The notes beneath the pieces are model-generated. The model saw only the letters and a program-made list of their open reading frames with translations, was not told where the DNA came from and did no database searches. Position numbers and translations under genes: made by a program. Below are positions 2,827 through 19,313 of a stretch of DNA of 64,000 nt, one piece after another. Source of the stretch: Nitrospirota bacterium (GTDB taxonomy: Bacteria > Nitrospirota > UBA9217); the NCBI GenBank assembly GCA_963818475.1, contig CAWFSF010000006.1:448001-512000 (forward strand), written 5' to 3'. Numbering within the stretch: position 1 is the stretch's first letter; the number at the start of each line of letters is the position of its first letter.

Positions 2827-4278
2827 ATGAAAATTGGTCTTATCGTCCCCCCTGCAATTTCGCAGGACAGAATCCCTGAACGGGTTTACGGCTGCACGTT
2901 TACGTACTACAAACAGCCCCAGCTTCCGCTCCTGTATGTCGGAGCTGTTCTCGAGAGGGAAGGCCATCAGGTCGTGTTCAGGGACTTCACCGGCAGGAAT
3001 GCTTGGGATGCGTTTGTCAGCTTTGTCGATGCCGCACCCTGCGATCTCTATGTTTTCCATACCGTCCTGCTGGCGGAAAGCGTTGACCTCCGGGCGGCAC
3101 GGCATGTCCTGGAGCATACCGCAGCGAAAATCATTTTCTTCGGCCCCCAGCCGACGCTGAAGCCGCGGAACTTCCTGACGAGCGACCGGTGCTATGTGGC
3201 ACGTGGTGAGGCTGAATTCATAATCCGTGACCTGGCTCGGGCTTTGGAGCACGGTGGTCTTGAGACCGTAAAAGGCATATCCTATCTCAGAACAAGCCAG
3301 ATGGTCGAGGCCGAAAGCTATGGAGTCATCGAGGACCTGGACAGCCTTCCTTTCCCGGCTCGCCATCTGATCGAACGCGGGAAGGATGATTTTTTCAATC
3401 CAAAGCTGCCCTACCGGCCCGTGACGCTGGTCCTGACCTCGCGGGGCTGCAGGTTCCGCTGCTACTATTGCGTGCCCAATGCAATCAGCTGGGCACGCGA
3501 GCTGGAATGGAAGCGGTTTCATCCCGGCACCAAGCCGCCAGTGACGCTCCGGTCTCCCGGGAACATCGCCGCCGAGTTCACGGCCATAAAAGCCCAGGGA
3601 TATCAGGCCGTGTCCATCCTCGATGATATGTTTCTTTTTGGCGGCAAGGAAAGGATTCTGGAGATATGTCGTGGATTAGAACGAGTTCAGCTACCCTTCG
3701 GAGGACTTTCTCGCTGTGAATTTGTGCTCGATGATGAAGTGGGTCAGGCACTGGCACGGGCTGGCTGTAAGTATATCGATCTGGGGATCGAGTCGCTCAA
3801 TCAAAATGTGCTCAATGATATTAAAAAGGACCTGGATATTTCGAAGGTCCGGCAGGCCATCGACCTGCTGAACAAGTATGGGATCGAGCCAAAAGCCAAT
3901 ATCATGTTCGGAGCCTCGCCGCTGGAAACGAAAGACACAATCCGTTCCACGGTTGAGACGATCTCAGCATATCCACTCAATTACTGCATGTTCCTGATTG
4001 CAACCCCATTTCCCGGGACGGAGTTCGATAAGCAAGCAAGGCAGAACGGGTGGGCAATTGAACCAGACATAAATGATCTGGAGAACAATCTTTCGCCTAC
4101 GAACAAGTCACTCGTGGAATACCCACATCTGGGCAAAGGAGACCTGGAACATGCGGTAAAGAAAGCAAATCGGCGATTTTATCTCAGTCCCAGGAGGATT
4201 TGGTTCCAGCTGAGCAAGGTCAGTTCCTGGAAGGCGTTGAAGGATTTGATGGTGACCGGCTGGAAGATCATAAAGTAG
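2827..4278 (+). CDS. cobalamin-binding radical SAM protein #1
   Basis: N-terminal B12-type domain (PLLYVGAVL, FFGPQPT, RGEAE), TSRGCRFRCYYC, GIES, TPFPGT. Confidence 0.9.
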   Translation: MKIGLIVPPAISQDRIPERVYGCTFTYYKQPQLPLLYVGAVLEREGHQVVFRDFTGRNAWDAFVSFVDAAPCDLYVFHTVLLAESVDLRAARHVLEHTAAKIIFFGPQPTLKPRNFLTSDRCYVARGEAEFIIRDLARALEHGGLETVKGISYLRTSQMVEAESYGVIEDLDSLPFPARHLIERGKDDFFNPKLPYRPVTLVLTSRGCRFRCYYCVPNAISWARELEWKRFHPGTKPPVTLRSPGNIAAEFTAIKAQGYQAVSILDDMFLFGGKERILEICRGLERVQLPFGGLSRCEFVLDDEVGQALARAGCKYIDLGIESLNQNVLNDIKKDLDISKVRQAIDLLNKYGIEPKANIMFGASPLETKDTIRSTVETISAYPLNYCMFLIATPFPGTEFDKQARQNGWAIEPDINDLENNLSPTNKSLVEYPHLGKGDLEHAVKKANRRFYLSPRRIWFQLSKVSSWKALKDLMVTGWKIIK

Positions 4279-4319
4279 AAGCGATCTGCGCAGACTGTCG
4301 TGGCTACCTATTCTAATCA

Positions 4320-5015
4320 ATGAAGATCCTGATTATCATACCGGCATACAATGAAGAAAAGAGCCTTCCCGGAGTTATCTCTGAACTGAGGAAAGAGGCT
4401 CCGGAGGCGGACGTGCTTGTCGTGAACGATGGGTCCCACGATAAGACGGTGCATATTGCGCGAGAAATGAGTGCTCAGGTTCTAGACCTGCCGTTCAACC
4501 TCGGGATCGGTGGAGCGATGCAGGCCGGGTACCTCTATGCACAGCGTCGGGGCTACGACATCGCAGTTCAGTTTGATGGCGATGGCCAGCATCTTGCCCA
4601 TGAGATAAAAAAATTGCTGCAGCCCGTGCTGGACGGGAAGGCTGATATTCTTATCGGTTCCCGGTTTCTGGGGCAGGGAGATTACAAACCCTCGTTCTCC
4701 AGAAAAATCGGAATCAAGGTCTTTTCCACTGTGTTATCATGCATCCTCGGAACGCGATTAACGGATACGACATCAGGTTTTCGCGCCGCCAACCGGCGGG
4801 TGATCGAGTTCTATGCCCGCACCTATCCCGACGATTATCCAGAAGTGGAGGCGCTGGTGCTTCTGCACAAGGCCGGGATGCGGATCGCGGAGGTTCCGGT
4901 CCACATGCGTGAGCGCACCAGCGGTCAGTCCTCCATAACAGCGGTGCGTTCGGTGTATTACATGGTAAAAGTGCTCCTGGCGGTCTTGATCGACCTGCTT
5001 AAAAAAACGAGGTGA
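4320..5015 (+). CDS. GT2, polyprenol-phosphate glycosyltransferase (DPM1-like)
   Basis: IIIPAYNEE, VNDGSHD, NLGIGGA, QFDGDGQH, GSRF, TDTTSGFR. Confidence 0.9.
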   Translation: MKILIIIPAYNEEKSLPGVISELRKEAPEADVLVVNDGSHDKTVHIAREMSAQVLDLPFNLGIGGAMQAGYLYAQRRGYDIAVQFDGDGQHLAHEIKKLLQPVLDGKADILIGSRFLGQGDYKPSFSRKIGIKVFSTVLSCILGTRLTDTTSGFRAANRRVIEFYARTYPDDYPEVEALVLLHKAGMRIAEVPVHMRERTSGQSSITAVRSVYYMVKVLLAVLIDLLKKTR

Positions 5016-5019
5016 ATCC

Positions 5020-5376
5020 ATGGATATCTTGGGCATATTGGCGATAGTCGGAAACGGGACGATCCTGCTGCTGGTCATAGAACTGATCCGCAGAGGACGA
5101 TTAAAAGAACGGTATTCTCTTGTCTGGCTCTTTGCCTGCGTTTCTCTGCTGATCCTCTCTCTGTCCAGGGAAACGCTTGAGTTCTTTTCGCATCTCGTCG
5201 GGATTTATTATGCCCCGTCCTTCCTGTTTCTTGTTGCCTTCCTGTTTCTGCTGATGATCACCCTTCACTTTTCCGTGGTCATATCGGGTCTGTCTGAAAA
5301 AAACAAAAAGCTTGCTCAGGAACTTTCATTGCTGAGGAACGAGATGGAGGGACGGGCAGCCCGGAAATCAGAGTAG
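5020..5376 (+). CDS. DUF2304 family membrane protein
   Basis: 118 aa, IRRGRLKERYSLVW, three hydrophobic segments and a coiled C-terminus; usual partner of the preceding GT2 type. Confidence 0.8.
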   Translation: MDILGILAIVGNGTILLLVIELIRRGRLKERYSLVWLFACVSLLILSLSRETLEFFSHLVGIYYAPSFLFLVAFLFLLMITLHFSVVISGLSEKNKKLAQELSLLRNEMEGRAARKSE

Positions 5377-5515
5377 ATGTACCGCAGGCTAGAGCGGGGT
5401 CCTGAATCGAATAAAACCAATACGAAATCAAAAGAATATACTTTACATGCCCCAATTTCCATGCTAAGTTTCACCACACTATCGAATAGCGACTGGTTTC
5501 AGGGAGGATTTTTCT

Positions 5516-6715
5516 ATGGGCTTCGTACAGACGATGAAGGATAAAATGGAAAGGTTCTATAGCAGCCCGCGGTTCAATGGCGCGGCGTTCATTCTCATTG
5601 CTGCGATGGTGCTTATTGCCTATTCCAATACGTTCACCGCCGCGTTTCATTTTGATGACAACCCGTCCATTGCTGAAAACCCAGTGATCAAGCACGTGAC
5701 CATGGAAAATATCACTCAGATCATTATGGGAATTCGGCCGGTCGTTTACCTGAGTCTGATGCTCAACTATCAGCTCGGCGCTCTGAATGTCGTGGGTTAC
5801 CACATATTCAATATTGCCGTTCATGTCATAAACAGCATGTTCGTCTATACGCTCATGCTCTGGACCTTTGGGATGCCCCTCCTCAGCGCCGCGTATCAGG
5901 CAAAGGCAAAAAGAATGGCATTATTCGGCGCGCTCCTGTTTGCCGTGCATCCGATCCAGACAGAGTCGGTAACGTATATTATAACCCGGACGGAGCTGCT
6001 TGCGACGTGCTTCTATCTTGCCACCTTCCTTCTATTCATCAAAGGGGTAAAAACCAAGAAGTTCGGTTACACTATCGGTGCCTTTTTTACCGCCCTCCTT
6101 GCCATGGGGTCCAAGGAATGGGCGGTAACGCTGCCGGCACTGCTCTTTGTCTATGATTTTCTGTTCCTGTCGGAAGGGAAGTTGAAGCCGATAGTGTCCC
6201 GCTGGCTAACGTATGTGATGGTAACGATTCCGTGCGCCACTGTTTTCCGCAACCTGAATCTGTTTTCGAGCAGCTCTGCCTCAGGCATCGGATTTAATTT
6301 GTCCACCACGAGTGGCATCAATGCACAGACGTACCTGCTCACCTCTTTTAATGTAATCTGGACGTATATCCGGTTGATGTTCCTGCCGATCAACCAGAAC
6401 CTCGACTACGACTATCCTATTGCAAAGACTTTGTTTGAATTCCCGACGATCATTTCTTTCATCGGACATCTGATCGTGGTGGGCGGCGCATTCTGGCTTT
6501 ATGTGAAAAAGAGATGGCTGTTGATTCCCTTTGGTGTGGCCTGGTTCTACATCGGCATCTCCCCGGTCCAGAGCGTCGTGCCGATCGTCGATGTTATTTT
6601 CGAGCACCGCATGTATATGCCGTCAATCGGCGTTTTCATCGTATTTGTTACAGCGTATGAGGGCTTGTTTGACCTCTGGACGGAAAAGAAAAGCGGTGCA
6701 GCGAAGATGCGTTAA
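5516..6715 (+). CDS. TMTC-like GT-C membrane glycosyltransferase lacking TPRs
   Basis: FHFDD loop, RPV, YHIFNIAVH, LFAVHPIQTESVTYI..R, SKE, P.NQNLDY, EHRMYMPS. Confidence 0.75.
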   Translation: MGFVQTMKDKMERFYSSPRFNGAAFILIAAMVLIAYSNTFTAAFHFDDNPSIAENPVIKHVTMENITQIIMGIRPVVYLSLMLNYQLGALNVVGYHIFNIAVHVINSMFVYTLMLWTFGMPLLSAAYQAKAKRMALFGALLFAVHPIQTESVTYIITRTELLATCFYLATFLLFIKGVKTKKFGYTIGAFFTALLAMGSKEWAVTLPALLFVYDFLFLSEGKLKPIVSRWLTYVMVTIPCATVFRNLNLFSSSSASGIGFNLSTTSGINAQTYLLTSFNVIWTYIRLMFLPINQNLDYDYPIAKTLFEFPTIISFIGHLIVVGGAFWLYVKKRWLLIPFGVAWFYIGISPVQSVVPIVDVIFEHRMYMPSIGVFIVFVTAYEGLFDLWTEKKSGAAKMR

Positions 6716-6739
6716 AGCATGAGGTCGCCAGTCCGGGGG

Positions 6740-8173
6740 TCATTTATGCGTTTTATCAAAGATCCGGGCAATAATTCTTTTAGAGTGTTTTATGCTCCAG
6801 AACAGGTGCTCAAACACGTTAAGCGCATCGTACTTGAAAATATTTTTTACCACGTTCACAATATTCGACGTTACTGATTCATGTTCATCCATGAATGCAA
6901 AATAATTTTTGCATTTGATGTTTGCCTCGTAATACGCCTGTAATCGTTCCTCCCTGGTGAAATTATCAGTTTCAAATACCACCTTGGGATTTTTCCCCTG
7001 AGTAAAACCGTCTTTCCAATCCATCAGCATGCGCCCGTTGTTTTTTACCCAGTCCCATACCTCGGTTCCCGGGAAGGGAACAAATAAATTGAAGATACAC
7101 GACTCCAATCTCAGTTTTTTTGCAAATGTAACGGACTCGCGAATAGAATTGAGGTGAGAGCCTGGCAGGCCGATAATAAAATTCCCCATAACCGAGATCT
7201 TATGCCTTCTTGCCATCGCGGCCGCACGCACGATGTCAGATAGCTCTTCTCCTTTTTTGATGGTTTTAAATTCCTCTTCTACGCCGCTCTCGATGCCGAG
7301 AGCAACGGCAAAACATCCAGCGCTCTGCATTTTCCCCATCAGTTCGTCATCGACCTTGTCCGCCCTGATCCCGTTCGGACAGGACCATTTGAGTTCCAGG
7401 TTGTCATGGGTGAGGGAATCGCAGAATGTTTTTGCCCTTTTCATGTCCAGCGAAAAATTGTCATCCTGAATATTGAAGTTGCTTATCCGGTATTGTGCTT
7501 TGGCTTTTTTAAGCTCATCGATAACCGTTTCCACGGTTCGTGGAACCCATGTCCTCCCCATGACCACTTTTACACAGCAGTAGGTGCACAGATAGGGACA
7601 GCCCCGGCTCGTAACGAGCGGGTAATTGTTAATGACGCCGTCCGTAACGCTGTCGAAAATGCCGAATTCAGGGTAGGGGATCGAATCGAGATCGGATATC
7701 CTTCCGGCATTTCCGGTAAAAATGATTTCTGAATTCTTTCTGAAGATAATTCCTTTTATTGACTCGAGGCTCCTGTTCGAAGCAAGTGCGTCGAGCAGCT
7801 GTGAGGTGACGATCTCACCTTCACCTACAACGCCGAAATCAAATAAATCGTGCTCTCTCATAAAATTGACGCCGTCGAGCGTGATGTGGGGGCCTCCGGC
7901 GATCAGGATATTGTTCTTATTTTTGACCTTTCGGGCGATCTCCAATGCATAATCCTTTGTGAAGGATTTCATGGAAAATCCGATGATGTCATAGCCCGCT
8001 ATTTCCCTGATCCTGGAGTCCTTATTCTCTCCATTATTGTTGAAATCAAAGACCTTGATATTTTTCGCCTTATTAACTTTCATTAAATAGGAGGCGACGT
8101 ATCCGATCCCGGTATTCAGTCCGAAATGAACGCCCTTGGGGTCGACAAAACAGATTTTATCATTCTTTGCCAT
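6740..8173 (-). CDS. cobalamin-binding radical SAM protein #2
   Basis: GIGYVASYL, GGPHIT, GEGE, TSRGCPYLCTYC, DDNF, GIESG, PFPGT. Confidence 0.9.
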   Translation of the reverse strand: MAKNDKICFVDPKGVHFGLNTGIGYVASYLMKVNKAKNIKVFDFNNNGENKDSRIREIAGYDIIGFSMKSFTKDYALEIARKVKNKNNILIAGGPHITLDGVNFMREHDLFDFGVVGEGEIVTSQLLDALASNRSLESIKGIIFRKNSEIIFTGNAGRISDLDSIPYPEFGIFDSVTDGVINNYPLVTSRGCPYLCTYCCVKVVMGRTWVPRTVETVIDELKKAKAQYRISNFNIQDDNFSLDMKRAKTFCDSLTHDNLELKWSCPNGIRADKVDDELMGKMQSAGCFAVALGIESGVEEEFKTIKKGEELSDIVRAAAMARRHKISVMGNFIIGLPGSHLNSIRESVTFAKKLRLESCIFNLFVPFPGTEVWDWVKNNGRMLMDWKDGFTQGKNPKVVFETDNFTREERLQAYYEANIKCKNYFAFMDEHESVTSNIVNVVKNIFKYDALNVFEHLFWSIKHSKRIIARIFDKTHK

Positions 8174-8195
8174 CGTAATTTGTCCCTTCGCGTAC

Positions 8196-8876
8196 TCAGT
8201 TTGAGAACCGGTATCTCAGCAGCGCCCAGAGGGCGGAGAAGCCGTCGGTCCAGCGTATTTTTTTTCCTTCACGGTAGGTTCTGCCGTAATAGGATATCGG
8301 CATCTCGTAAATTCGGTATTTGTTTTTGCAGAATTTCGCCGTCAGTTCCACTTCGATCTCGAATCGTTTCGAGCGTAAGGTCATGTCCTTCAAGACACTG
8401 CTTCTGAATACCTTATAGCAGCTTTCCATATCTGACAGCGTCGAGTTGTAAAGAATGTTCGCAAAGAGCGTGAGCATCTTATTGCCGACCAGATGCCAGA
8501 ACATATACACCCGCTGCGGTTTTCCCCCGGAAAGCCGCGATCCGTATACCACATCGGCCATACCCCTGAGGATCGGTTCGGCCAGGGCTTGTATCTCCTG
8601 AGGGTCGTATTCCGTATCAGCGTCCTGGACTGCCACGATGTCACCGGTTACGAGTTCGAACCCCTTTCGCAGGGCAGTTCCTTTTCCGCCGTTTTTGGTA
8701 AGGAACGCCTTTTTGAGGCCGACGATATCCAAACGCTCAAGGACATCTTTTGTCCCGTCGGTGGAGCCATCGTCCACTACGATGATCTCTTTGTCGAACC
8801 CAAGCGAGTGGACCTTTCGTATGATCGTTTCGATCGTATTCTTTTCGTTATAAACGGGAATAACAATTGAAATCAT
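8196..8876 (-). CDS. GT2, polyprenol-phosphate glycosyltransferase (DPM1-like)
   Basis: IVIPVYNE, DDGSTDGT, NGGKG, QDADTEYDP, YGSR, DMESCYK, Y.GR.Y.EGKKI.W.DG. Confidence 0.9.
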   Translation of the reverse strand: MISIVIPVYNEKNTIETIIRKVHSLGFDKEIIVVDDGSTDGTKDVLERLDIVGLKKAFLTKNGGKGTALRKGFELVTGDIVAVQDADTEYDPQEIQALAEPILRGMADVVYGSRLSGGKPQRVYMFWHLVGNKMLTLFANILYNSTLSDMESCYKVFRSSVLKDMTLRSKRFEIEVELTAKFCKNKYRIYEMPISYYGRTYREGKKIRWTDGFSALWALLRYRFSN

Positions 8877-11326
8877 GTATGCATTCCTCTCTTTGTGACT
8901 AATTGTTTTCGATTAGCTCCAACGAGATAGGCGAGAGCCAAAACAATGATCGCGCATCCGCTTATCGCGGCGCCGATCGTGAAACTGAGTGGCGTATAGA
9001 TAAATCTGACCCGGGATTTTCCTTTTTCCAGGAACACGGCTCTGAAATTATAGTCCGCCCGGTAGATATCTCGTTTTTTCCCATCCACGAGAGCAGTCCA
9101 TCCCGGGTAGTAAGTGTCGCTCAGTATCAGCAGGCCCCTCTCGGCCATATCAGCATCTATGACGACCTCGCGCGACCCATAGGAGAAGACCGAGGCTAAC
9201 GAACGGCCGGATGCCTGCGACCCCTTCAGCTCCGGCACTGGTGACGGAAGATCGGGGCCCAGAACAGCTTCAGATGCCGGCTTAAAATCAGGCCGATACA
9301 GGATGGCGAGCGCGTCCTCCTTACTGGTTGCCACTTGGGCTTTATGAACAATAAATGCACGCGGAAGCGCATTGAGGTTCTGATAAACATTGATTTCGTC
9401 CGAGTACACTTTTTCCAGAAAGGGAACCTTCAATTCCTGATCTTTCGGTACGAGAAGATATTTGACATTCATGAGGTTGGCAAGAGTGGTGTTCATGGAA
9501 TTGCCGAACATGAAAAAGGTGCCCACGCCTGTTTTCCGGGTCATCAGTTCTTCGTAGCTTTTTAGTGAGATGCCATCGTATCCGCGTACATCCTGAAGAC
9601 CGTAGGGTACCCAGGTATTCATGGCCATGACCTTGCCGATCCCATAGATGCGGTGCAGGCTTTGGTCTTTGCGTAAAAAATCAATGGCCGGCGTTGAAGG
9701 GTATACCTGATCCGGTTTGATGCCCGCCCAGAAGCCGGAAGCAAAAACAAGGAGGTCCGCTATGGTTATCAGGACGAGAAGTGTCTGGAATACCGTCTTT
9801 GTCAGATATTCTTTAGCATAGAGAAATACGGAAAGCGCTGACAGAAGTGCCCAGAGAAGAAAATGCAGCAGTTTGTTGGTAACATATACCGAGAGACCGC
9901 GGCCTGCAACAATCTCCGCAAACGCGCCATACGATATGAGAACCCACAGCAGGAGGGCGATGCCCAGGGAAACAGCGAATAACCGGCTGAACGTTCTGGT
10001 CATGCGTCGTAGATCCGCTTTGTCCGCCATAAGAAGGGAATGCGCGCCAAAGCCGGCGAGCACGGAGACCGAGAAACTGTAAATAAGGACCAGCCGATTG
10101 TTGTTCAGCTTGGCAAAGAGAGGAAGGCTCCAGATCGCATCGCCGATAAGGGGCATACGGTATACCACGGCGAGGGCGAGAATGCCGAGAAACGTAAAGA
10201 AGGCGACCCGTGCCTTACCCGCCGTGTTTCCGGTTATTGCTACGAAAGCCAGAAAAAGCGGCAAGATGCCCGCGTAACCGCTCTGCTCAAGGTAGGTCCA
10301 CATGCCCGCTGCATTACCCCAATAAGTATGCTCAGCGGGATTTCCAAAATAATCGGGGACCACATAGAGCACCAGGCCCTTGAGCGAAGTAACGAATCTG
10401 AAGAACGAATCCGGCGTGACTGAAAAGCCAGCGCCTCCTCTTGCGGCCATCAGTGAACTGAGGTTGATATATTCCCATGCGGGCAACAGCTGGATTGCGG
10501 CAACTGCGACTCCCAGGCAGACCGCTGCGCCATACAGCATTGATGCGTGAAGCGATATGCGTATATCGCGGTTTTCCCGATAGAGCATGAGAATGCGGAA
10601 GAGTGCATACAATCCCGCTGCAGCCAGGACGTGAAAGGTCGTCTCGTAATGGCCGGCCAGAAAGGAACATCCCACCGCAGCGGCCAGGGGCGCAACCGAG
10701 CGAATCGTTTGTGTTGTGAAAACCCGTTCGGAACAAAGAAGAAGGAGGGGGAGGCACAGCGCGGCAAGCACGTGGTTGTGGCCGAGCCAGCCGACCATGA
10801 ATCCGCTGAACATGAAGCTGGCCGCAGCCACAAGTGCGGCGGTGGTAGCGAGCCGTAATTCCTTCAGAAAGAGGTAGGTGAACAGGCCGGCAAAAAATAA
10901 TTTGAGATAAGCAGCCAGCCCGAATGCATACCAGACAGGCAGCATATAAAAGACCGCGTTCAGGGGGAACAAAAACCCCGTGGAATTCGCGAAAAACGGC
11001 CAGCCGCACGAAACCAGAGGATTCCACAAAGGGAATTCACCATGCCGGACCATGTCCGCGGCCTGGTGAAACCAGGGATAGAAGACGAAGGTATTGTCAA
11101 AGAGATTTTCATTGGAAGGTCCGCTGTAGCCGGCTGGAGCGATTGAGCTCCAGGGAGGCACGGTATATAGAAAATCGGCGGGCCACAGTGAATAGCCGAA
11201 AAAAAGCGCCTGACAGAGCAGAAGTGCGGGCAGAACAGCCAGGAGGGCAACAGGCCATCTGTGGTTCCCCGGTATTTCGTGCGTGATAACGCGGCCGTTG
11301 GTTTTGCTGCCGGAACCCTTGCTCAT
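8873..11326 (-). CDS. YfhO-family GT-C membrane glycosyltransferase
   Basis: GEFPLWNP..CG.P, many TM segments, GYDG, NVKYLL, ALPRAF, LILSDTYYPGWTA.VDG; start at ATG 11326 overlapping the upstream TGA. Confidence 0.85.
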   Translation of the reverse strand: MSKGSGSKTNGRVITHEIPGNHRWPVALLAVLPALLLCQALFFGYSLWPADFLYTVPPWSSIAPAGYSGPSNENLFDNTFVFYPWFHQAADMVRHGEFPLWNPLVSCGWPFFANSTGFLFPLNAVFYMLPVWYAFGLAAYLKLFFAGLFTYLFLKELRLATTAALVAAASFMFSGFMVGWLGHNHVLAALCLPLLLLCSERVFTTQTIRSVAPLAAAVGCSFLAGHYETTFHVLAAAGLYALFRILMLYRENRDIRISLHASMLYGAAVCLGVAVAAIQLLPAWEYINLSSLMAARGGAGFSVTPDSFFRFVTSLKGLVLYVVPDYFGNPAEHTYWGNAAGMWTYLEQSGYAGILPLFLAFVAITGNTAGKARVAFFTFLGILALAVVYRMPLIGDAIWSLPLFAKLNNNRLVLIYSFSVSVLAGFGAHSLLMADKADLRRMTRTFSRLFAVSLGIALLLWVLISYGAFAEIVAGRGLSVYVTNKLLHFLLWALLSALSVFLYAKEYLTKTVFQTLLVLITIADLLVFASGFWAGIKPDQVYPSTPAIDFLRKDQSLHRIYGIGKVMAMNTWVPYGLQDVRGYDGISLKSYEELMTRKTGVGTFFMFGNSMNTTLANLMNVKYLLVPKDQELKVPFLEKVYSDEINVYQNLNALPRAFIVHKAQVATSKEDALAILYRPDFKPASEAVLGPDLPSPVPELKGSQASGRSLASVFSYGSREVVIDADMAERGLLILSDTYYPGWTALVDGKKRDIYRADYNFRAVFLEKGKSRVRFIYTPLSFTIGAAISGCAIIVLALAYLVGANRKQLVTKRGMHT

Positions 11327-12729: not shown

Positions 12730-13919
12730 ACGCCACCTCCATACTGCCTGTATACGCCTTCATAACGCGATCCAATCGTGCGCCATGATAGCATCTCTTT
12801 AATGAATTTACAACCCTTTGCAACCTTCTTCGCGGCGTCCTCTTTGTTCTCTAAAACAAAGCGCATCCTGGCGGCAAGATCGTCGATATCGTTGTATCTG
12901 ACGAGATAACCGATGTCCTGCCTGCCGATGATCTCGCCGCAACCGCAGTCATCAGTCACGATGACCGGCGCCCCGCACAGCATGGCCTCGAAAGGAACCA
13001 AACCGAATATTTCATGGATCGCAGGATAGACCAGCATGTCCGCAGCGCAATAGGCAGACAGCTTGTCTTTGCCTGTCAGAAGGCCGGTGAAGAGAACCCG
13101 GTTCGAGAGGCCTTTTTCGCGTACAATGTTCTCCACCTGGGTCCTGAATCCCATATCATTGCCTGCGATGACGAGTACGGTGTCGGCTGCGTTCATCCGG
13201 TAAAAAGCCTTTACCAGAAAATCAATTCCTTTCCGCGGCGTGATCTTGCCGAGGTAGAGGACCACGTTCTTGTCCAGGATGCCGTACTTCTTTTTAAAGG
13301 CATCGGTTTTCGGAAGGTCGGTGAAGGCGTCGATATCGATACCGTTATAGGTGACATCGATTTTATCGCCTTCAATTCCCATTTCTCGATACTGGCTGAC
13401 TTCATGGTCAGAGACGGCGATGAACCGGGACGCATCTTTTAAAATGCGGTCTCCGAAAATCCTGTCGAAAATAAGCTTAGTGAAGATTCTTCGCTCGATT
13501 CTGAGGATTGTGCCATGGCCGGAGAGCAGGTAGCGCTTACCCTCTTTTTTTGCATAAAAATGGACGATATTGTTCAAAAAATTGCGGTGGCCGTGGAGAT
13601 GAACAATGTCGAAGCCCCTGATCGTTTCACGAACGGCCTTTCGCATTCCCAGCGGCAGGAAAACCTGGTAGTGATATGCGAGGCTGTTGCTGATGTTTCT
13701 GAAGTAGCGGACGGTAATGCCGTCGACCTTCGTTTCTTTGCCGCTTTGGTCGCACCGCCTGTCCTGATCGAGAACGTCTGTGGTATAAACGGTGACATCG
13801 TGCCCCATTTTCGTCAGCTCTCTCGAAAGTTCATACACGACGCGCGGTATGCCGCCGTACGCCCAGGCGGGATAGAAGTAGGGGACCACCTGCAATATTT
13901 TAAGCTTTTTGTCTGACAT
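12726..13919 (-). CDS. GT4 glycosyltransferase
   Basis: YGGIPRVV, NGID, LGKITPRKG, EIFGLVPFEAM (EX7E). Confidence 0.9.
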   Translation of the reverse strand: MSDKKLKILQVVPYFYPAWAYGGIPRVVYELSRELTKMGHDVTVYTTDVLDQDRRCDQSGKETKVDGITVRYFRNISNSLAYHYQVFLPLGMRKAVRETIRGFDIVHLHGHRNFLNNIVHFYAKKEGKRYLLSGHGTILRIERRIFTKLIFDRIFGDRILKDASRFIAVSDHEVSQYREMGIEGDKIDVTYNGIDIDAFTDLPKTDAFKKKYGILDKNVVLYLGKITPRKGIDFLVKAFYRMNAADTVLVIAGNDMGFRTQVENIVREKGLSNRVLFTGLLTGKDKLSAYCAADMLVYPAIHEIFGLVPFEAMLCGAPVIVTDDCGCGEIIGRQDIGYLVRYNDIDDLAARMRFVLENKEDAAKKVAKGCKFIKEMLSWRTIGSRYEGVYRQYGGGV

Positions 13920-14721
13920 GGCCGACTCCGATCTTTTTGAATAAGTGCCCCAGGGTGTAAACTCCAAAGATGCGCAGCATCCTCAAACCCAGGGCCACCA
14001 GGGAGTGATACACGAAAAGCCCGAAGGCCCGGAGGAAGGGTACCCCGCAGCCGATCTGAGCCCTGAACAAGTCTTTGCTGACCGAGAATTTGTTGGAATC
14101 GCTTATGCCGCCCAGCCTCATCACGGCCCATATTTCGTCGACAAAAAAAGGTGTTTCCGTCTCCGTGACGCGCAGCAAGTGTTCATAATCCATTGCATAC
14201 CGGTAGTCGAGTTTGTACGGGCCGAAGCGATCGAAGATGCTTCTTCGTATAAAGGCTGATTGATGAGGCATGATATTCCGCTTTCGCATGCTTTTTCGGG
14301 AAAAGGGCAATCCCATCACGCCTACGATCTCATCCGAGTGCTCAGGCACATAACACGTTTTGCCGTAGACGATGTTTGCCTCGGAATGTTCTGAAAATAC
14401 GCGCATCGCCCGCTCAACGACCTCATCGTTGAAATAGTAGTCCTGAGAATTCAGGAAGGCGATTATGTCGCCGGTGCAGGCGCGCAGACCCTTGTTAAAG
14501 GCGTCGGATATGCCCTTGTCCGGTTCACTTATCCAATAGTCTATTTCCTTATCGTGCGCTTTCAGGGTCTCTTGCGTGTTATCCCTGGAGCCTCCGTCGA
14601 TAACGACATATTCGATGTTGCCGTACGTCTGGCTGCGGACGTTCCGGATCGTGCTTTCCATGTACTTTCCGCTGTTCAGGCAGATGGTGATGATGCTGAC
14701 TTTGGGATCCGCGCTATTCAT
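13900..14721 (-). CDS. GT2 glycosyltransferase (WcaE/WfgS-like)
   Basis: VSIITICLNS, IDGGSRD, SEPDKGISDAFNKG, PHQSAF, MDYE. Confidence 0.9.
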   Translation of the reverse strand: MNSADPKVSIITICLNSGKYMESTIRNVRSQTYGNIEYVVIDGGSRDNTQETLKAHDKEIDYWISEPDKGISDAFNKGLRACTGDIIAFLNSQDYYFNDEVVERAMRVFSEHSEANIVYGKTCYVPEHSDEIVGVMGLPFSRKSMRKRNIMPHQSAFIRRSIFDRFGPYKLDYRYAMDYEHLLRVTETETPFFVDEIWAVMRLGGISDSNKFSVSKDLFRAQIGCGVPFLRAFGLFVYHSLVALGLRMLRIFGVYTLGHLFKKIGVGHVRQKA

Positions 14722-14803
14722 GATGGTTTCCTGACTTTCGGTGTTGAGTTCCGGTATCTATAAGTGAAACAGGGCGTCCTGTTTTTGCTGAAGATAAAGG
14801 CTA

Positions 14804-15961
14804 CTAAATCGCTTTTCTCAAGATGTCTGCAAAGGTTTCTCCAAACGATTGTATCCTCGATTGCAGCAATGAGCGTGCTTGTTCTTCCATTAATAAATCG
14901 GGTCCCGGAGCGGTCTCCTCCCAGGTCCTCATCAGTTTATCTGCGAGATCTTCGGCGTTCCCGGGGTCGAAATAGGCTCCTCCACCCGGCGCCTGTTCCC
15001 TATGAACAGGGATATCTGAGAGCAGGATCCTCTTTCCCAGGGATTTTACTTCTTCCACGGTCGTGCTCCATCCCTCGAAAAAAGAAGGATTCAGGACCGC
15101 GATCGATTGACGCATAAAAGCATAAACATGCGGCAACGGGACCAAGCCCAGGAATGCGATCTGATCTTGCAGGTTATGCTGCTGGACAATTCTTTTCAGA
15201 TCACCGAAGTGCCCGGGGTTTCTATGATCGTTTTCATTGCCGGTACATATGACAAAGACATTTTCATTCCGTTTTTTGAGAAGGTGTAAAGCTTCGAGTA
15301 CCACAATATGGTTTTTATGCTTCCAAAACTGGTTCGGCAGATAGAAAAACTTTTCCGGCAATCGGTAAGACGATATCGCATCTCGCGGATCTTTATTATA
15401 GATATCCGGCTGGATAGGAACGACAAACCTTAAAATATCCACGGGTGTCTGATAATCGGGGAAAAAGGTCTCGAAGTCTTTTCTGGCATCCTGGCTGCTT
15501 ACCACCAGTCTCTTGCTTTGCTTCGCATACTCTCTCATTAATCGCGTGCGAAATACTCGTTCCCGCTCGGTGAACATCCCGGGGAGGTGGAAGTGCTGAA
15601 AGTCCGCGATCCAGTTCACACAGGGAATGTGGAATCCCGGGCCGAACAAGCCGGCATGAAAAACCACCTTTACGTCATGGTGATCAAAGAGACGGGCCGC
15701 GATACGGTCATTGCCGGGCATTCTCCTGAGCACTTGCCGCATGATCCAGGACGGGCTCCATTCGGTGAAACTTCTTGTTGTTACGACGTCCGCAACGTAT
15801 TGACGGATAGCATCGAGCTCCGCCTGTTTGTTTTCGCCGCTAAAAAGAACAGGCTCGATAGAACCCCGGGTAACGGTCTGGAGGGCGCTCAGAATATTTT
15901 TGAGATAATGGCTTCCCCCGGTCCATCCTTTATGTCCGATCAGTGAAAAGGCAACCCTCAT
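14804..15961 (-). CDS. GT4 glycosyltransferase
   Basis: WTGG..Y, DFQH, PNQFWKHKNH, PSFFEGWSTTVEE, SDIPVHREQ. Confidence 0.88.
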   Translation of the reverse strand: MRVAFSLIGHKGWTGGSHYLKNILSALQTVTRGSIEPVLFSGENKQAELDAIRQYVADVVTTRSFTEWSPSWIMRQVLRRMPGNDRIAARLFDHHDVKVVFHAGLFGPGFHIPCVNWIADFQHFHLPGMFTERERVFRTRLMREYAKQSKRLVVSSQDARKDFETFFPDYQTPVDILRFVVPIQPDIYNKDPRDAISSYRLPEKFFYLPNQFWKHKNHIVVLEALHLLKKRNENVFVICTGNENDHRNPGHFGDLKRIVQQHNLQDQIAFLGLVPLPHVYAFMRQSIAVLNPSFFEGWSTTVEEVKSLGKRILLSDIPVHREQAPGGGAYFDPGNAEDLADKLMRTWEETAPGPDLLMEEQARSLLQSRIQSFGETFADILRKAI

Positions 15962-15962
15962 G

Positions 15963-16889
15963 TCATCCTCTGCCCGCTCGTTGATGCCATAGGACATAAT
16001 CACGCACGCCCTGTTTCCAGCCCACTGAGGGTTTCCAGCCGAGCGATTCGGCCCTTGTCGTATCAGCCCTGTAATACTTCGGATCGCCCACCTTTATTAT
16101 GCCGTTAAAGCGTATGGGCAGATGCGTTCCGTACTCATTGCTCACATATTCAAGGATGTCCCGAACCGTGATCGCTTCACCGCTTCCTCCGTTTATGATG
16201 GTGAACCGGTCAGATGTTTCGGAGAGCAGCAGTATCAACCGTGCTGCATCGAGAACGGAAAGCCAGTCCCTCGTTTCCTCCCCCGAGCCAAAGAACATGA
16301 GTTCTTTTTCATTGCGAGAGAACTTTTCGCACGCTTCCCAGAGCAGCTGCTTTTTCAGCCCTTCTCCGTACAGGGAGAAAAATCTGATTATGGATACTTT
16401 CAGGGCGAAATTGTCAGAATAGGATTTACAAAGCTCCTCGGCAATCTTTTTGTGAAAGCCATAGGGCGAAACAGGGGATAGCAATTCGTCCTCTTGCAAC
16501 GGGCGATCGTTCTTCACCCCGTATACTGCTGCACTCGAAGGGTAAACGAGCACTGCGTCCTTGTTAAAAAGGCGCACATATTCAAGTACGGCCAGCGTCG
16601 TGTTCACGGTCCGGTTAAAATCCTCCATGGGATGGGAAACGGAATAGCCTACAGATCCGGAACCGGCGCAATGAACGATGAGGTCGAATTTTCCCTGCAA
16701 CCCGACGAGCGTGTCCACCGTAATGTCTGCCTCTGTCCAGACATCGAGCCCGATCGCGTTGGCGGAGTCCTCTTCCACACTCCCATGACCGACGCCCGTC
16801 ACCACAAAGCCGTTTTGCTTCAGCTCGCGTGCGGTATTTCTGCCGAGAAATCCTGCTGCGCCTGTGATCAGGGCGGTTCTGGTTTTCAT
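15963..16889 (-). CDS. NAD-dependent epimerase/dehydratase
   Basis: ITGAAGFLG, SSAAVYG, YGFHK (YxxxK), GEETRD. Confidence 0.9.
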   Translation of the reverse strand: MKTRTALITGAAGFLGRNTARELKQNGFVVTGVGHGSVEEDSANAIGLDVWTEADITVDTLVGLQGKFDLIVHCAGSGSVGYSVSHPMEDFNRTVNTTLAVLEYVRLFNKDAVLVYPSSAAVYGVKNDRPLQEDELLSPVSPYGFHKKIAEELCKSYSDNFALKVSIIRFFSLYGEGLKKQLLWEACEKFSRNEKELMFFGSGEETRDWLSVLDAARLILLLSETSDRFTIINGGSGEAITVRDILEYVSNEYGTHLPIRFNGIIKVGDPKYYRADTTRAESLGWKPSVGWKQGVRDYVLWHQRAGRG

Positions 16890-17686
16890 GCGGGTTTCCT
16901 TCCGATAAATGAATACAGACGACCCGGAGTCTGGATAAGGGACCCCATCAGGGTCAGCAGCGTGTCAGGAAGCAGCTTCGGCCATGGCCATCTTACCCTG
17001 GCGGATATTCTTCGCTTGACGGACTCCCGGCTCTCCGGGAACAGGTTGATGTCTGACTGCAGCGGGTTGAGAACGCGCTCCACGTCGAGGCCGGCCTCCT
17101 TCATCGCATTGGTATATTCAGAAAGCAGGAATGCATGTTCACCACCGTAAAGACGGTGCAAGGGATGAGCATCAAGAAATATCTGCAGATCGTTCTTTTT
17201 GCTGATCACGTGTTCCCGCGTGGCCACGAACAGTCCCCGCGGCTTCAGAACCCTGTAGACCTCACGGCACAACGCGCGCAAATCGTGCGCGTGGTGGAGC
17301 ATCTGCCTGGCATAGACCAGGTCGAAACTATTATCCGTAAAAGGCAGCTTTTCTCCCCAATCTTCGATCACGGTAATGTCAAGGTTCGTTTCATTCGCCA
17401 GCATCCGGATGGCTCCGGCGCCTACTATGGCACTCTTATCCGGTTCGAGGGCCGTTACTCTCCAACCGTCTCGCGTCAAGGCATAAGATGAAATGCCGCG
17501 TCCCGCGCCAAGGTCTAAAGCCCTTGCGGGAGGATGGGGGAGCACATTCCTGACCGCCTGCCACTCGGTACTATGGTAATACCGATTCGCTGCTGTTGAT
17601 AAGGGGTCGTCGTAAAAACAATCTTTGACCAATTCTGCTTTGTCAGGCTGTTGCCGCAGCCAAAGCACTGCTTCTTCCCAAGTCAT
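16886..17686 (-). CDS. class I SAM-dependent methyltransferase
   Basis: ALDLGAGRG, LPFTDNSFDLV..RQMLHH, RVLKP.G. Confidence 0.88.
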   Translation of the reverse strand: MTWEEAVLWLRQQPDKAELVKDCFYDDPLSTAANRYYHSTEWQAVRNVLPHPPARALDLGAGRGISSYALTRDGWRVTALEPDKSAIVGAGAIRMLANETNLDITVIEDWGEKLPFTDNSFDLVYARQMLHHAHDLRALCREVYRVLKPRGLFVATREHVISKKNDLQIFLDAHPLHRLYGGEHAFLLSEYTNAMKEAGLDVERVLNPLQSDINLFPESRESVKRRISARVRWPWPKLLPDTLLTLMGSLIQTPGRLYSFIGRKPA

Positions 17687-17888
17687 TTTCGCCGGCCTTT
17701 ATCTGGAAAAATGTAATTCTCTGTAGCTCATTCGCAATGCCGTCTCGTTCGGCAGAGTTTGAGAAACCGTCGGTTAAAACGAGGATAATGATCATCATCA
17801 GTAACAGCAGACCGTCTGTTTGCTGCGTAAAGATTCAGCAGGGGTGGAAAAATGACGATCCGGGCATGCTTTCGAAATGAATCATCGG

Positions 17889-19313
17889 TTAAAACCGGAT
17901 TTTCCCGGCGCTGAGGCATTTGCTCAGTCTAGAGCGCGCTCTTTTGGGATCCAGAAAATTGAATATGCTGCTGAACAAAATAATGTTCTTGTTGTCCGCG
18001 GTATTTGCGGATGTATTCGCAGAAAAATTCCAGAAATGCCTATTCTTGTCAAATGGGATCCTATTTCCACTACGATTTATTTGTTTAGACCATTTGAATA
18101 ATTTCAGGAACGAATTTTCAAGCGTATAATACGGGATAGTGTCATAGTTTGCCCACGATTCATCCTGAATATGCCCTTCTTTTTTAAGCTTTTCATAGAG
18201 CAATGTTCCTGGAAGGACGTACAGGATTGAACTGCTCAAAGGGTCTGTCAAGGACAGGGAGTTCAAAAATTCTATTGTTTCACGAATTGTGGCTTCCGTT
18301 TCTCCAGCGTTGCCAACCATGATGAAAGCACTTGTCGCTAAAACGCCACTAAATTTCTTCGAAAGATCGAACGCGTTTCGTATTTGCGGCAAAGAAATTT
18401 TTTTGTTTATGCTTTTCAACATTGTTTCAGAGCCTGTTTCAATTCCCCAACCGATATGTCGACAGCCTGCTTCGACCATGTATGCTATCATCTCTTCAGA
18501 AACAGGCACGACCCTGCATGAGCACGCCCATTCCACCCTGATTCCCCTATCAATGATCTCCTTGCAGACCGCTTTGACCCGTTCAATGCCGAGATTGAAC
18601 GTATCGTCATGAAAAAAAATCTTTTTGACATTGAAGTTTGAGACCAGCATTTCCATTTCGTCGACGACTCTTTGCGGGGAGCTAATACGAACCCGCTGGC
18701 CCCAATAGCTGCTGGTCGAACAAAAGGTACATCTCACCGGACAGCCTCGTGAACCGATGAGAACGCCAATGGAGGATCGATTAATATACTCTCGCGCATA
18801 TGAATAATCCGGCATGGGAAGATCATCGAGATTTGAGATGCTTTCCTGAGGCTGCGTAACTACGACCTCGCCATTATTCTTATACGCAATTCCTCTGACC
18901 TGTTGTAAGAGCGTATTCTTTTCAAAAGCATCGCAGAGATCGCTAAAGGTTTTTTCGCCCTCGCCGATCACAACGACATCAGCATCATAATTATTAAGCG
19001 CTTGTTCATAAAGAAAAGACACATGAACTCCGCCCACCACAATCTTTACGTCTTTGTTGATGGATCGTATCAGCCGTATGCCATCTCTCACAAAACCTCT
19101 GTTAAATGATGTGCAGGTCAGTCCAACGACACGGGGAGCGAAGGAAGCCATCTCTCTTTTAATTTCCCGCACTGCATGGTGCATTTTATTGAAGTGAAAA
19201 GCTTTAACCTCATGTTTCTGTTTTAATGCGCCGACAAGATAGCCGATCCCGAGAGGGAATAGATATTCATCATATTCCTGCAATCCGGGCAAAGACAATA
19301 ACATGATTTTCAT
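17889..19313 (-). CDS. cobalamin-binding radical SAM protein #4
   Basis: FPLGIGYL, GGVHVS, GEGE, SRGCPVRCTFC, DDTF, GIETG, LPGT. Confidence 0.9.
   Translation of the reverse strand: MKIMLLSLPGLQEYDEYLFPLGIGYLVGALKQKHEVKAFHFNKMHHAVREIKREMASFAPRVVGLTCTSFNRGFVRDGIRLIRSINKDVKIVVGGVHVSFLYEQALNNYDADVVVIGEGEKTFSDLCDAFEKNTLLQQVRGIAYKNNGEVVVTQPQESISNLDDLPMPDYSYAREYINRSSIGVLIGSRGCPVRCTFCSTSSYWGQRVRISSPQRVVDEMEMLVSNFNVKKIFFHDDTFNLGIERVKAVCKEIIDRGIRVEWACSCRVVPVSEEMIAYMVEAGCRHIGWGIETGSETMLKSINKKISLPQIRNAFDLSKKFSGVLATSAFIMVGNAGETEATIRETIEFLNSLSLTDPLSSSILYVLPGTLLYEKLKKEGHIQDESWANYDTIPYYTLENSFLKLFKWSKQINRSGNRIPFDKNRHFWNFSANTSANTADNKNIILFSSIFNFLDPKRARSRLSKCLSAGKIRF

Follow-up and report, generated by a model that had tools for sequence, protein, structure and literature searches.

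Four B12-domain radical SAM proteins as candidate glycan-tailoring enzymes in a mosaic surface-glycan locus of a Nitrospirota bacterium

The window analyzed here is a stretch of 64,000 nucleotides from a Nitrospirota bacterium (lineage UBA9217; GenBank assembly GCA_963818475.1, contig CAWFSF010000006.1, positions 448,001 to 512,000 of the forward strand). It carries a surface-glycan locus with four genes, here called R1 to R4, whose products join a B12-type N-terminal domain to a radical S-adenosylmethionine (SAM) domain. Domain architecture, family placement, conserved gene neighborhoods and natural fusions were observed directly, and the four proteins very probably take part in glycan synthesis. 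The overall best explanation, which in our estimation is evenly poised, is that R1-R4 are glycan-tailoring enzymes of a mosaic locus, with R1, R2 and R3 built into carrier modules. A first-pass annotation of the same DNA had proposed a radical-based system that tailors an envelope glycan. This proposal is supported as far as sequence analysis goes, and it has become sharper, since three of the four proteins lie in polyprenyl-phosphate-sugar modules. Both ingredients, the carrier-sugar modules and the enzyme class, are known; they are combined here in an undescribed way. The four genes are as follows:

2827-4278, plus strand: R1, radical SAM protein with a degenerate B12-type N-terminal domain, 483 aa (Radical_SAM 59.7 bits; B12-binding 30.5 bits)
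6740-8173, minus strand: R2, B12-domain/radical SAM protein, 477 aa (Radical_SAM 65.2 bits; B12-binding 34.9 bits)
11323-12729, minus strand: R3, B12-domain/radical SAM protein, 468 aa (Radical_SAM 101.3 bits; B12-binding 58.3 bits)
17889-19313, minus strand: R4, B12-domain/radical SAM protein, 474 aa (Radical_SAM 81.0 bits; B12-binding 71.7 bits)

The four open reading frames (ORFs) lie where the first-pass annotation had placed them, and its description of four proteins of about 470 aa with a B12 domain and a CxxxCxxC motif holds. The Pfam cut-off for Radical_SAM (PF04055, 29.5 bits) is reached by all four and that for B12-binding (PF02310, 32.1 bits) by R2, R3 and R4, with R1 just below it, while the CxxxCxxC cysteines are invariant in a four-way alignment. 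They are also divergent, as had been noticed, with 25-26% pairwise identity to R1, and do not look like recent copies of one another. Since close homologs of each exist elsewhere (best identity 94% for R1, 58% for R2, 93% for R3 and 87% for R4), they are real genes. The profiles of the R1 and R3 families align from the first residues, N-terminal domain included (hhalign probability 100%, 442 columns), and the model of R1 has an alpha/beta N-terminal domain. The R1 family alignment also has two conserved inserts, located in the first N-terminal-domain loop and just after the cluster motif, and several R1 homologs have no precomputed PF02310 match. The AlphaFold models of R3 and R1 (predicted local distance difference test scores 89.9 and 92.2, respectively) have AprD4 (PDB 6fd2) as the best whole-chain fold match, with template modeling (TM) scores of 0.74-0.80, those of R1 being 0.75-0.80, at an alignment identity of 19-23%. 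Further matches are MgmA, TsrM, CysS, OxsB and TokK; for the whole set, AprD4 included, the probability is 1.00 and the query-normalized TM score 0.61-0.75. At the level of these models, R1 and R3 have the whole-chain fold of the B12-domain class.

Three of the radical SAM proteins (R1, R2 and R3) are encoded inside two modules of the lipid-carrier side-branch kind, in which a short glycosyltransferase of family 2 (GT2) is combined with a membrane glycosyltransferase of the GT-C type. The partner genes, together with those of a third cassette that contains R4 and a family 4 glycosyltransferase (GT4) of module B, are listed below:

4320-5015, plus strand: module A, GacI/PpgS/DPM1-type short GT2, predicted to make a polyprenyl-phosphate sugar, 231 aa (Pfam GT2 81.6 bits)
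5020-5376, plus strand: module A, DUF2304 small membrane protein of the GacJ/Rv3632 family (Pfam DUF2304 84.6 bits against a cut-off of 25.5)
5516-6715, plus strand: module A, polytopic membrane protein, probably a PMT_2-like GT-C (Pfam PMT_2 20.1 bits, below 26.1)
8196-8876, minus strand: module B, DPM1/AglJ-type short GT2, predicted to make a polyprenyl-phosphate sugar, 226 aa (Pfam 114.7 bits)
8873-11326, minus strand: module B, YfhO-family GT-C membrane glycosyltransferase (Pfam YfhO 91 bits against 28.5)
12726-13967, minus strand: module B, GT4, translationally coupled to R3 (Pfam Glycos_transf_1 118.7 bits)
19388-20611, minus strand: low-GC cassette, Glyco_trans_1_2 glycosyltransferase-like protein (Pfam 81.1 bits)
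20683-21663, minus strand: low-GC cassette, class I SAM methyltransferase (Pfam Methyltransf_11 56.2 bits)

Module A runs in the order R1, short GT2, DUF2304 protein (GacJ-like) and PMT_2-like GT-C, and module B, one tightly packed operon on the minus strand, in the order GT4, R3, YfhO, short GT2 and R2. R4 stands apart from both, in the low-GC cassette with the Glyco_trans_1_2 protein and the methyltransferase. The reported interleaving with glycosyltransferases is thus real: GT2 genes lie at 989, 4320, 8196 and 13900, GT4 genes at 12726 and 14804, the Glyco_trans_1_2 gene at 19388 and GT-C genes at 5516 and 8873. Among solved structures, each of the two short GT2s has Dol-P-Man synthase (5mlz), ArnC and GtrB as its top relatives, and all three load a sugar onto polyprenyl phosphate. 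In NCBIfam, the GT2 at 4320-5015 scores 103.7 bits for PpgS, below the cut-off of 370, and that at 8196-8876 scores 143.3 bits for AglJ, below 325, too low in both cases to name the sugar. The membrane protein at 5516-6715 is probably a GT-C transferase: it has phmmer matches of 29-71 bits to membrane proteins of related loci (the PMT_2 cut-off of Pfam is reached by several of these proteins), and PMT_2 is the only common Pfam family in 20 of its 30 Atlas matches, with scores up to 0.98.

The overlap of R3 with its GT4 and YfhO neighbors, which had been pointed out at first pass, stands in the form of short coupling overlaps, whereas a 208-nt overlap with YfhO arises only with the longest ORF. 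The R3 start codon (TTG at 12729, with GGAGG upstream) overlaps the GT4 stop as TTGA. The likely YfhO start is the ATG at 11326, which forms an ATGA overlap with the R3 stop, and the longest ORF extends to 11530. Overlaps of 4 nt therefore join GT4 to R3, R3 to YfhO (at ATG 11326) and YfhO to GT2, and R2 starts 22 nt past the stop of the GT2 at 8196-8876. Neither a GtrA/GtcA gene nor a GtrA domain was found in the window, and module B has no small membrane partner or flippase of its own; one Wzx protein is encoded 20 kb away.

Enrichment in glycan loci, the second outcome by which the first-pass annotation had proposed to judge its reading, was observed directly for the R3 family. An alignment of R3 with 21 homologs was used as the query against contigs of one genome per species, giving 261 relatives and 80 loci that were kept. 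The anchors of these loci are 38-67% identical to R3, and the window's own genome is absent from them. Searches with the window proteins against six-frame ORFs of the 80 loci placed an ortholog of the GT2 at 8196-8876 (at least 150 bits) within 300 bp of the R3 ortholog in 23 of them, often overlapping it or at most 16 bp away. Any GT2 was present within 3 kb of the R3 ortholog in 40 of the 80 loci, and further B12-type radical SAM proteins occurred in 26. Gene-order counts were based on a simple gene caller and on iteratively collected GT-C-like membrane proteins, for which 72 loci with the anchor were kept (in the other eight, three of them with an adjacent GT2, the caller lost the anchor gene). 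Within one gene of the R3 ortholog, a DPM1-like GT2 was found in 22 of the 72 loci, a GT-C in 17, both in 4, and any GT2 or GT-C in 36; within three genes, these numbers rose to 37, 28, 20 and 45, respectively. More distant genes in the same loci provided an internal control. DPM1-like GT2s accounted for 17% of genes at offset 1, 14% at offset 2 and 12% at offset 3, against 0-4% at offsets 5-10 (23 of 134 direct neighbors, 17%, versus 12 of 440 genes at offsets 5-10). For GT-C, the share was 13% at offset 1 and had dropped to 0-6% by offsets 6-10.

The combination of R3 with GT2 or GT-C recurs in about 20 of the listed taxon labels, from Bacteria and Archaea alike. Among them are DPANN archaea, lineages of Patescibacteria, Thermodesulfobacteriota, Myxococcota, Pseudomonadota, Elusimicrobiota, Omnitrophota and a part of Planctomycetota. 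When five loci with multiple radical SAM genes were annotated in full with Pfam, they revealed repeated runs of GT2, radical SAM and PMT_2/YfhO/TMEM260 proteins, for example GT2, R3 ortholog and PMT_2 in locus L003, R3 ortholog, radical SAM and PMT_2 in L052, and R3 ortholog, radical SAM, GT2 and PMT_2 in L062. The same five loci hold GtrA domains, AsnB, DegT and class I methyltransferases, the last three of which are present in the window as well. Moreover, 22 of the 41 further radical SAM paralogs in the 80 loci have a GT2 or GT-C as a direct neighbor. As a separate observation, locus L062, from a Planctomycetes metagenome-assembled genome, also encodes a classical sugar C-methyltransferase (L062:153-1373, with Methyltransf_14/13 domains) and a NeuB-type synthase; as this locus has both kinds of enzyme, ordinary and radical tailoring enzymes coexist there.

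For the R2 and R4 families, the link with glycans was observed in another form, as natural fusions to GT2, GT4 and methyltransferase domains. A scan with R2 of 1.84 billion cluster representatives gave 51,404 relatives at E ≤ 1e-3, and all 44 proteins of at least 589 aa among the best 150 R2 relatives were annotated. Eleven of the 44 have a fused glycosyltransferase domain: GT2 in three (P0420, P0445 and P0540), GT4 in seven (P0449, P0464, P0487, P0489, P0505, P0510 and P0535) and, weakly, an AftD-type GT-C in one (P0462). Methyltransferase domains are fused in three (P0470, of the FkbM type, P0516 and again P0540). The remainder comprises three proteins with inteins, six multi-radical-SAM proteins without a glycosyltransferase domain and 22 that consist of radical SAM domains and unannotated sequence only. 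The best window match of the GT2 domains of P0420, P0445 and P0540 is the GT2 at 989-2032. One R4 relative, P0366, which is 52% identical, has an FkbM methyltransferase domain as a fusion partner. The expected glycan-locus enrichment is thus borne out for R3 through neighborhoods and for R2 and R4 through fusions; for the R1 family the evidence is the window itself. Two structural peculiarities of the R2 group were also seen. Inteins are inserted just before the radical SAM core in some R2-like proteins (P0407, P0408 and P0417), and four giant R2-like proteins (P0434, P0469, P0482 and P0517) have 1,800-2,300 aa and 4-5 radical SAM domains, with a SPASM domain in three of the four.

The first-pass annotation had expected the four proteins to fall away from characterized clusters, and they do: no curated NCBIfam cut-off is reached by any of them in any named family. 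The scores of R1-R4 for HpnJ (TIGR03471), which is the best NCBIfam family of R1 and R2, are 145.4, 149.7, 170.0 and 158.6 bits against a cut-off of 577.6. They are 84.9-175.6 bits for BchE (TIGR02026, cut-off 481.35), 78.6-97.2 for AprD4 (NF033070, cut-off 500) and 52-90 for HpnR (cut-off 650). The best match of R3 is Sden_1168 with 189.1 bits against 575 (PhpK/Sden_1168 are TIGR04479 and NF038361, with cut-offs of 600 and 575), and that of R4 is the 'lipid biosynthesis B12-binding/radical SAM protein' family with 178.5 bits against 360. For ApyD, an enzyme of peptides that are made by the ribosome and modified post-translationally (RiPPs), R2-R4 score 137-163 bits and R1 52 bits, all below the cut-off. 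Finally, scores of 44-74 bits against 400 were obtained for TIGR04295, whose short name 'B12_rSAM_oligo' may, as a name, hint that curators saw an oligosaccharide context for a different subfamily. In a FastTree phylogeny of 109 radical SAM proteins, for which alternate R3 anchors (36 of 72) and 38 of the 41 extra proteins were taken, the four subfamilies separate, each on one side of a branch with support 100, although the tree came with long-branch warnings and weak deep branches. R1-R4 each belong to a large, unnamed subfamily of their own, and an Atlas search with R3 returned only unnamed B12/radical SAM clusters. PADLOC anti-phage models gave only weak matches of R1-R4 to the candidate PDC-M51A (17-68 bits) and no match for the five glycosyltransferase and GT-C proteins scanned. 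The tree also contains a clade of shorter radical SAM proteins of 435-445 aa (L033:7658-8962, L040:1496-2800, L010:8679-9992 and L047:7836-9170) as a weakly supported sister of the R1 family. A DPM1-like GT2 gene immediately precedes two of them and is two genes away from a third; the L033 protein, the clade member covered by the Pfam scan, had no B12-binding match.

The sole intermediate common to a DPM1-type GT2 and a GT-C is the polyprenyl-phosphate monosaccharide, and a radical SAM protein encoded beside them would therefore most simply act on that or on its nucleotide-sugar precursor. In the proposed pathway, the short GT2 would use a nucleotide sugar to charge polyprenyl phosphate with a single sugar on the cytoplasmic side of the membrane. 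The radical SAM enzyme would then take a hydrogen from the carrier-linked sugar by means of a 5'-deoxyadenosyl radical and alter an unactivated carbon, most likely by cobalamin-mediated C-methylation, with rearrangement or deoxygenation as the alternatives. The altered lipid-linked sugar would next be flipped across the membrane, where the GT-C would attach it to a polymer or protein on the outside. That the sugar is lipid-linked rather than nucleotide-linked, that cobalamin is used and which type of reaction takes place we infer from the evidence above. It is quite conceivable, at somewhat below even confidence, that R1 and R3 act on a polyprenyl-phosphate-linked sugar, and C-methylation is tentatively put forward as the single most likely reaction. 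R2 and R4 may instead have the sugars of a growing chain as substrates, because members of their subfamilies in other genomes are fused to GT2 and GT4 domains of the chain-building type and to methyltransferase domains.

Several known systems share features with the modules. Module A has parts and an order (short GT2, DUF2304 protein, GT-C) like those of the GacI/GacJ/GacK/GacL system of Streptococcus pyogenes and of the mycobacterial PpgS/Rv3632 system, whose GT-C is Rv3779; a Wzx-type flippase is encoded in the window locus (31644-33005). According to the accessible text on the Gac system, GacJ, a member of DUF2304, is a binding partner and stimulator of the GlcNAc-P-undecaprenol synthase GacI, and the GT-C GacL then transfers the sugar outside the membrane; that text mentions no radical SAM gene, whereas R1 heads module A (10.1101/180810). 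Further differences are the score of the window GT2 for PpgS, 103.7 bits against 370, and the weak recognition of the window GT-C by Pfam. Module B, with its pair of DPM1-type GT2 (8196-8876) and YfhO-family GT-C (8873-11326), recalls CsbB/GtcA/YfhO of teichoic-acid glycosylation in Firmicutes. However, the pair in module B is flanked by two radical SAM genes, the window has no GtrA/GtcA and the host belongs to Nitrospirota.

Tailoring of a sugar while it is on polyprenyl phosphate is known from ArnC/ArnD/ArnT and from DprE1/DprE2. Their logic is the one proposed here, with loading of the sugar by a GT2, editing on the carrier by a further enzyme and delivery by a GT-C, and both short GT2s count ArnC among their closest solved relatives. 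The editing enzymes are nevertheless a deformylase (ArnD) and a flavin/NADH epimerase pair (DprE1/DprE2), not radical SAM proteins. Within the B12-domain class, MoeK5 acts on a lipid-phosphoglycerate-linked sugar. According to a 2022 review, enzymes of this class for which sugar C-methylation is established include GenK and GenD1, while for MoeK5 it is a proposal (PMC9204698). Together with Fms7, these enzymes share the class and a carbohydrate substrate with R1-R4 as proposed here (the same source), but they belong to actinomycete secondary-metabolite clusters and not to envelope glycan loci. In the closest sequence of events, the glycosyltransferase HpnI attaches a hexose to a lipid, and HpnJ, which is of the B12-domain class, is proposed like Cds to remodel the hexose already attached (PMC13459092; PMC9204698). 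HpnI/HpnK/HpnJ and Cds thus resemble the modules in that a sugar is put on a lipid before radical SAM remodeling. They differ in that the window proteins score about a quarter of the HpnJ cut-off, with no hopanoid genes in the window, and that the carrier here would be polyprenyl phosphate, with the sugar passed to an acceptor outside the cell.

A number of observations weigh against the proposed glycan-tailoring role or parts of it. In 27 of the 72 loci, neither a GT2 nor a GT-C lies within three genes of the R3 ortholog. Loci of Scalindua are flanked by DUF547 upstream and a SprT/DUF2786 protein downstream (two of them, L031 and L037, have a PMT_2-like GT-C and a GT2 at 1.4-3.4 kb). Two Planctomycetia loci have Fmt, GAPDH and PGK as flanking genes, and in those of Smithella the upstream genes encode GT-C/TPR proteins but the downstream ones PTPS and FolE2. 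The neighborhood counts apply to the R3 family; no clear orthologs of R1, R2 or R4 were present among the 41 extra radical SAM proteins of the 80 loci (best 138, 193 and 231 bits, respectively), and the neighborhood evidence for these three is the window itself. The glycosyltransferase domains fused to R2 relatives are of the chain-building type, like GT2 989 and GT4 12726, and not DPM1-like, so that for R2 a growing chain fits better than a carrier-linked monosaccharide. Rfam at gathering thresholds had no match in the window and hence no cobalamin riboswitch. Cobalamin use is further put in question by the sub-threshold B12-binding score of R1, and cobalamin-dependent C-methylation by the diol dehydratase AprD4 being the closest solved fold of R1 and R3, since AprD4 is not known to use cobalamin. 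On plasmids, a search with R3 found only paralogs, about 27-31% identical, whose surroundings vary: of the four contexts examined, two are of the sugar-nucleotide/glycan kind, another is a RiPP cluster that includes PqqD and a peptidase, and the last is lipid-like, with adjoining KAS, ACP and PAP2 genes. Architecture alone therefore predicts little.

These points bear on the rival explanations to different degrees. The AprD4-like fold, the HpnJ best matches and the altered N-terminal domain of R1 make deoxygenation or rearrangement without cobalamin a serious rival, although we consider it unlikely that R1-R4 are non-methylases, perhaps cobalamin-free, which contract a sugar ring to a carbocycle (the reaction proposed for HpnJ and Cds), dehydrate a 1,2-diol or deoxygenate in the manner of AprD4, or epimerize the sugar. 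AprD4 is a 1,2-diol dehydratase of apramycin biosynthesis, and the structure matched by the R1 and R3 models is a complex with its carbohydrate substrate. It is also the nearest solved sequence for R1 and R4, the R1 domain with the sub-threshold Pfam score has a conserved family insert in its first loop, and four methyltransferases of the ordinary kind are already encoded in the locus. HpnJ, BchE and OxsB are recognized non-methylases of the class (PMC9204698). The NCBIfam scores lie so far under the cut-offs, however, that none of R1-R4 belongs to HpnJ or AprD4; for AprD4, the structural alignments reach 19-23% identity, and no AprD3-like partner was identified. In addition, R2 and R3 are closest among solved sequences to MgmA (9ccb, identified through PMC11796369 and PMC12931638), which is a true cobalamin-dependent C-methylase; all matches to the nearest solved sequences are of 65-93 bits.

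Less probable still is that the enzymes tailor a nucleotide or free sugar before it is loaded by the GT2 and so make an unusual donor sugar. A gene that adjoins a GT2 fits an enzyme acting just upstream equally as one acting just downstream, and Fom3 of the same class acts on a nucleotide-linked substrate. Two plasmid paralogs, 28-30% identical to R3, have neighbors typical of nucleotide-sugar formation. On pDMC1 of Solidesulfovibrio magneticus RS-1 (L081, locus coordinates 6613-19257), the gene set comprises VTT/DedA, two GT2s, the radical SAM protein, NUDIX, a kinase, a thiamine pyrophosphate-dependent E1 pair, GDP-fucose synthase, DegT, an epimerase, a nucleotidyltransferase and a GT-C, and on p6 of Azospirillum lipoferum 4B (L082), it comprises GDP-fucose synthase, the radical SAM protein, a kinase and NUDIX. 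The kinase and NUDIX genes beside both, with the nucleotidyltransferase farther downstream on pDMC1, suggest a soluble sugar substrate for that subfamily, which again weighs against a carrier-linked one. Fom3 is listed among the single C-methylases in a review (PMC9204698). On the other side, Pfam scans of the window found no kinase, NUDIX or nucleotidyltransferase gene adjoining R1-R4, the recurring partners are GT2 and GT-C with the lipid-linked sugar as their only common intermediate, and the HpnJ and Cds precedents are proposed to act after lipid attachment. Since both plasmid hosts can be cultivated, these distant paralogs in glycan contexts are possible experimental handles.

Modification of lipids, either the polyprenyl carrier itself or membrane lipids, is improbable. 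It could draw on the best NCBIfam match of R4, on the lipid-context plasmid paralog and on the lipid-modifying radical SAM enzymes GrsA/B, Gmm and HpnP/R, which have the B12-domain architecture (PMC13459092). Yet the R4 score is half of its cut-off, Pfam scans detected no lipid-synthesis genes in the locus (no hopanoid gene, squalene-hopene cyclase included, among the 54 window proteins scanned), and the fusions are to glycosyltransferases, not to lipid enzymes. Protein or peptide targets, whether by RiPP-like tailoring or by alteration of a surface protein before its glycosylation, are more improbable again. MgmA, the nearest solved relative of R2 and R3, is a protein methylase, ApyD gives matches with R2-R4, one plasmid paralog is in a RiPP cluster and some R2 relatives are giant proteins with SPASM domains; on the other hand, no precursor peptide, PqqD/RRE, peptidase or exporter gene adjoins R1-R4 in the Pfam scans, the scores are far under the family cut-offs, and neighborhoods and fusions point to glycosyltransferases. 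A phosphonate context was likewise looked for, and the Pfam scan of the window proteins found no PEP-mutase domain. Chance co-location, by which radical SAM genes dropped into a variable mosaic locus (GC content 0.43-0.45 in R2 and the R4 cassette against 0.50-0.55 around, and singleton locus proteins at 90% identity), is hardly credible given the translational coupling, the adjacency kept across phyla and decaying with distance, and the domain fusions.

The surface-glycan locus extends from base 1 to about 33,000 of the window, as judged from the ORF list and Pfam scans of 22 and 30 proteins, and its other recognizable genes are as follows:

989-2032, plus strand: GT2 glycosyltransferase of the Glyco_tranf_2_3 type (Pfam Glycos_transf_2 115.4 bits)
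1984-2739, plus strand: class I SAM methyltransferase (Pfam Methyltransf_11 73.7 bits)
13900-14721, minus strand: GT2 glycosyltransferase (Pfam 81.5 bits)
14804-16003, minus strand: GT4-like glycosyltransferase (Pfam Glycos_transf_1 59.5 bits)
15963-16889, minus strand: NAD-dependent sugar epimerase/dehydratase (Pfam Epimerase 143.9 bits)
16886-17686, minus strand: class I SAM methyltransferase (Pfam Methyltransf_11 74.8 bits)
21664-23520, minus strand: AsnB-type glutamine amidotransferase (Pfam Asn_synthase 227.4 bits; NCBIfam asn_synth_AEB 370 bits against 267), a type that recurs in the R3-related loci of other genomes
25709-31310, minus strand: sugar-precursor block of HAD hydrolase, class I methyltransferase (26391-27140, minus strand), epimerase, ATP-grasp, GFO/IDH/MocA oxidoreductase and DegT aminotransferase (all by Pfam)
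31644-33005, minus strand: Wzx-type polysaccharide flippase at the end of the glycan locus (Pfam Polysacc_synt 113.3 bits)

The earlier count of four class I methyltransferases in the locus was correct (1984-2739, 16886-17686, 20683-21663 and 26391-27140), with only one of them inside 2827-19313. Just upstream of the GT2 at 989-2032, an 84-aa ORF (679-933) covers only positions 8-74 of the 168-position GT2 profile (51.7 bits) and is a truncated glycosyltransferase remnant. The GC content is 0.448 in R2 and 0.435, 0.426 and 0.437 in R4, the Glyco_trans_1_2 gene and the methyltransferase of the R4 cassette, against 0.50-0.55 in their neighbors, which suggests that the low-GC patches 6740-8173 and 17889-21663 are separately acquired cassettes. 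Proteins of the glycan locus are singletons or pairs in clusters at 90% identity, whereas the housekeeping proteins FolD and GlpD have 13-22 cluster members; the patchy GC content and few cluster members give the usual picture of a variable, mosaic surface-glycan locus. No tRNAs were found in the window. Promoter-like and terminator-like sites in 1-20000 were not clearly above shuffled sequences (21 versus 19.3±3.6 and 30 versus 22.5±4.4, respectively) and were not used.

Beyond about 33,000, the window turns to housekeeping genes, among them GlpD, FolD, PdxJ, TsaE, NAD kinase, MutS, DnaB and a type IV pilin/PilY1 cluster. The mutS gene (45400-48077) is split over three frames, 45400-46008 (domains I-II), 45878-47485 (domains II-IV) and 47274-48077 (domain V, 286 bits), and its two frameshifts make it either a pseudogene, with a possible mutator phenotype, or the product of assembly errors. 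DnaB (48771-50849) has 692 aa, its helicase domains end near residue 442, and the last 263 residues gave a weak TPR_2 match only, with no intein domain found by Pfam. At 33800-34837, between a MarR regulator and a GDPD gene, long ORFs overlap on opposite strands (345 aa on the minus and 320 aa on the plus strand), of which the 345-aa one has no Pfam match. The minor-pilin cluster of the type IV pilus (54430-62080) comprises N_methyl pilins, PilX_N, a 1,306-aa PilY1-like protein, an Ig-domain protein and two GspH-like pilins.

The known roles of B12-domain radical SAM enzymes concern antibiotics, pigments, hopanoids and archaeal lipids as well as the modification of proteins. No description of such an enzyme in a surface-glycan or polyprenyl-phosphate-sugar pathway was found in a literature search for which most subscription journals were outside coverage. 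By term search, a 2026 review of the class lacks the words polysaccharide, glycan, glycosyl and sugar (PMC12931638), and the 2022 review lacks the word polysaccharide (PMC9204698). A widespread, undescribed step in the synthesis of envelope glycans and glycoproteins, in which B12-domain radical SAM enzymes, placed between the GT2 that loads the carrier and the GT-C, make C-methyl, deoxy or carbocyclic sugars on polyprenyl phosphate, is a possibility we put forward with some doubt. If it is real, such sugars would decorate Nitrospirota, Desulfobacterota, Planctomycetota, Elusimicrobiota, Patescibacteria (candidate phyla radiation, CPR) and DPANN archaea, and would represent a new kind of sugar chemistry in cell envelopes. 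It would provide a function for thousands of genes now annotated as 'radical SAM protein' (the R2 scan alone contains 6,533 representatives at E ≤ 1e-30) and explain why very small genomes keep costly radical SAM enzymes. The modules are small, with two to four genes, and thus open to heterologous expression. Finally, the proposed step, if real, would offer a first handle on the surface chemistry of the uncultured CPR and DPANN, whose cell-cell attachment depends on their envelopes.

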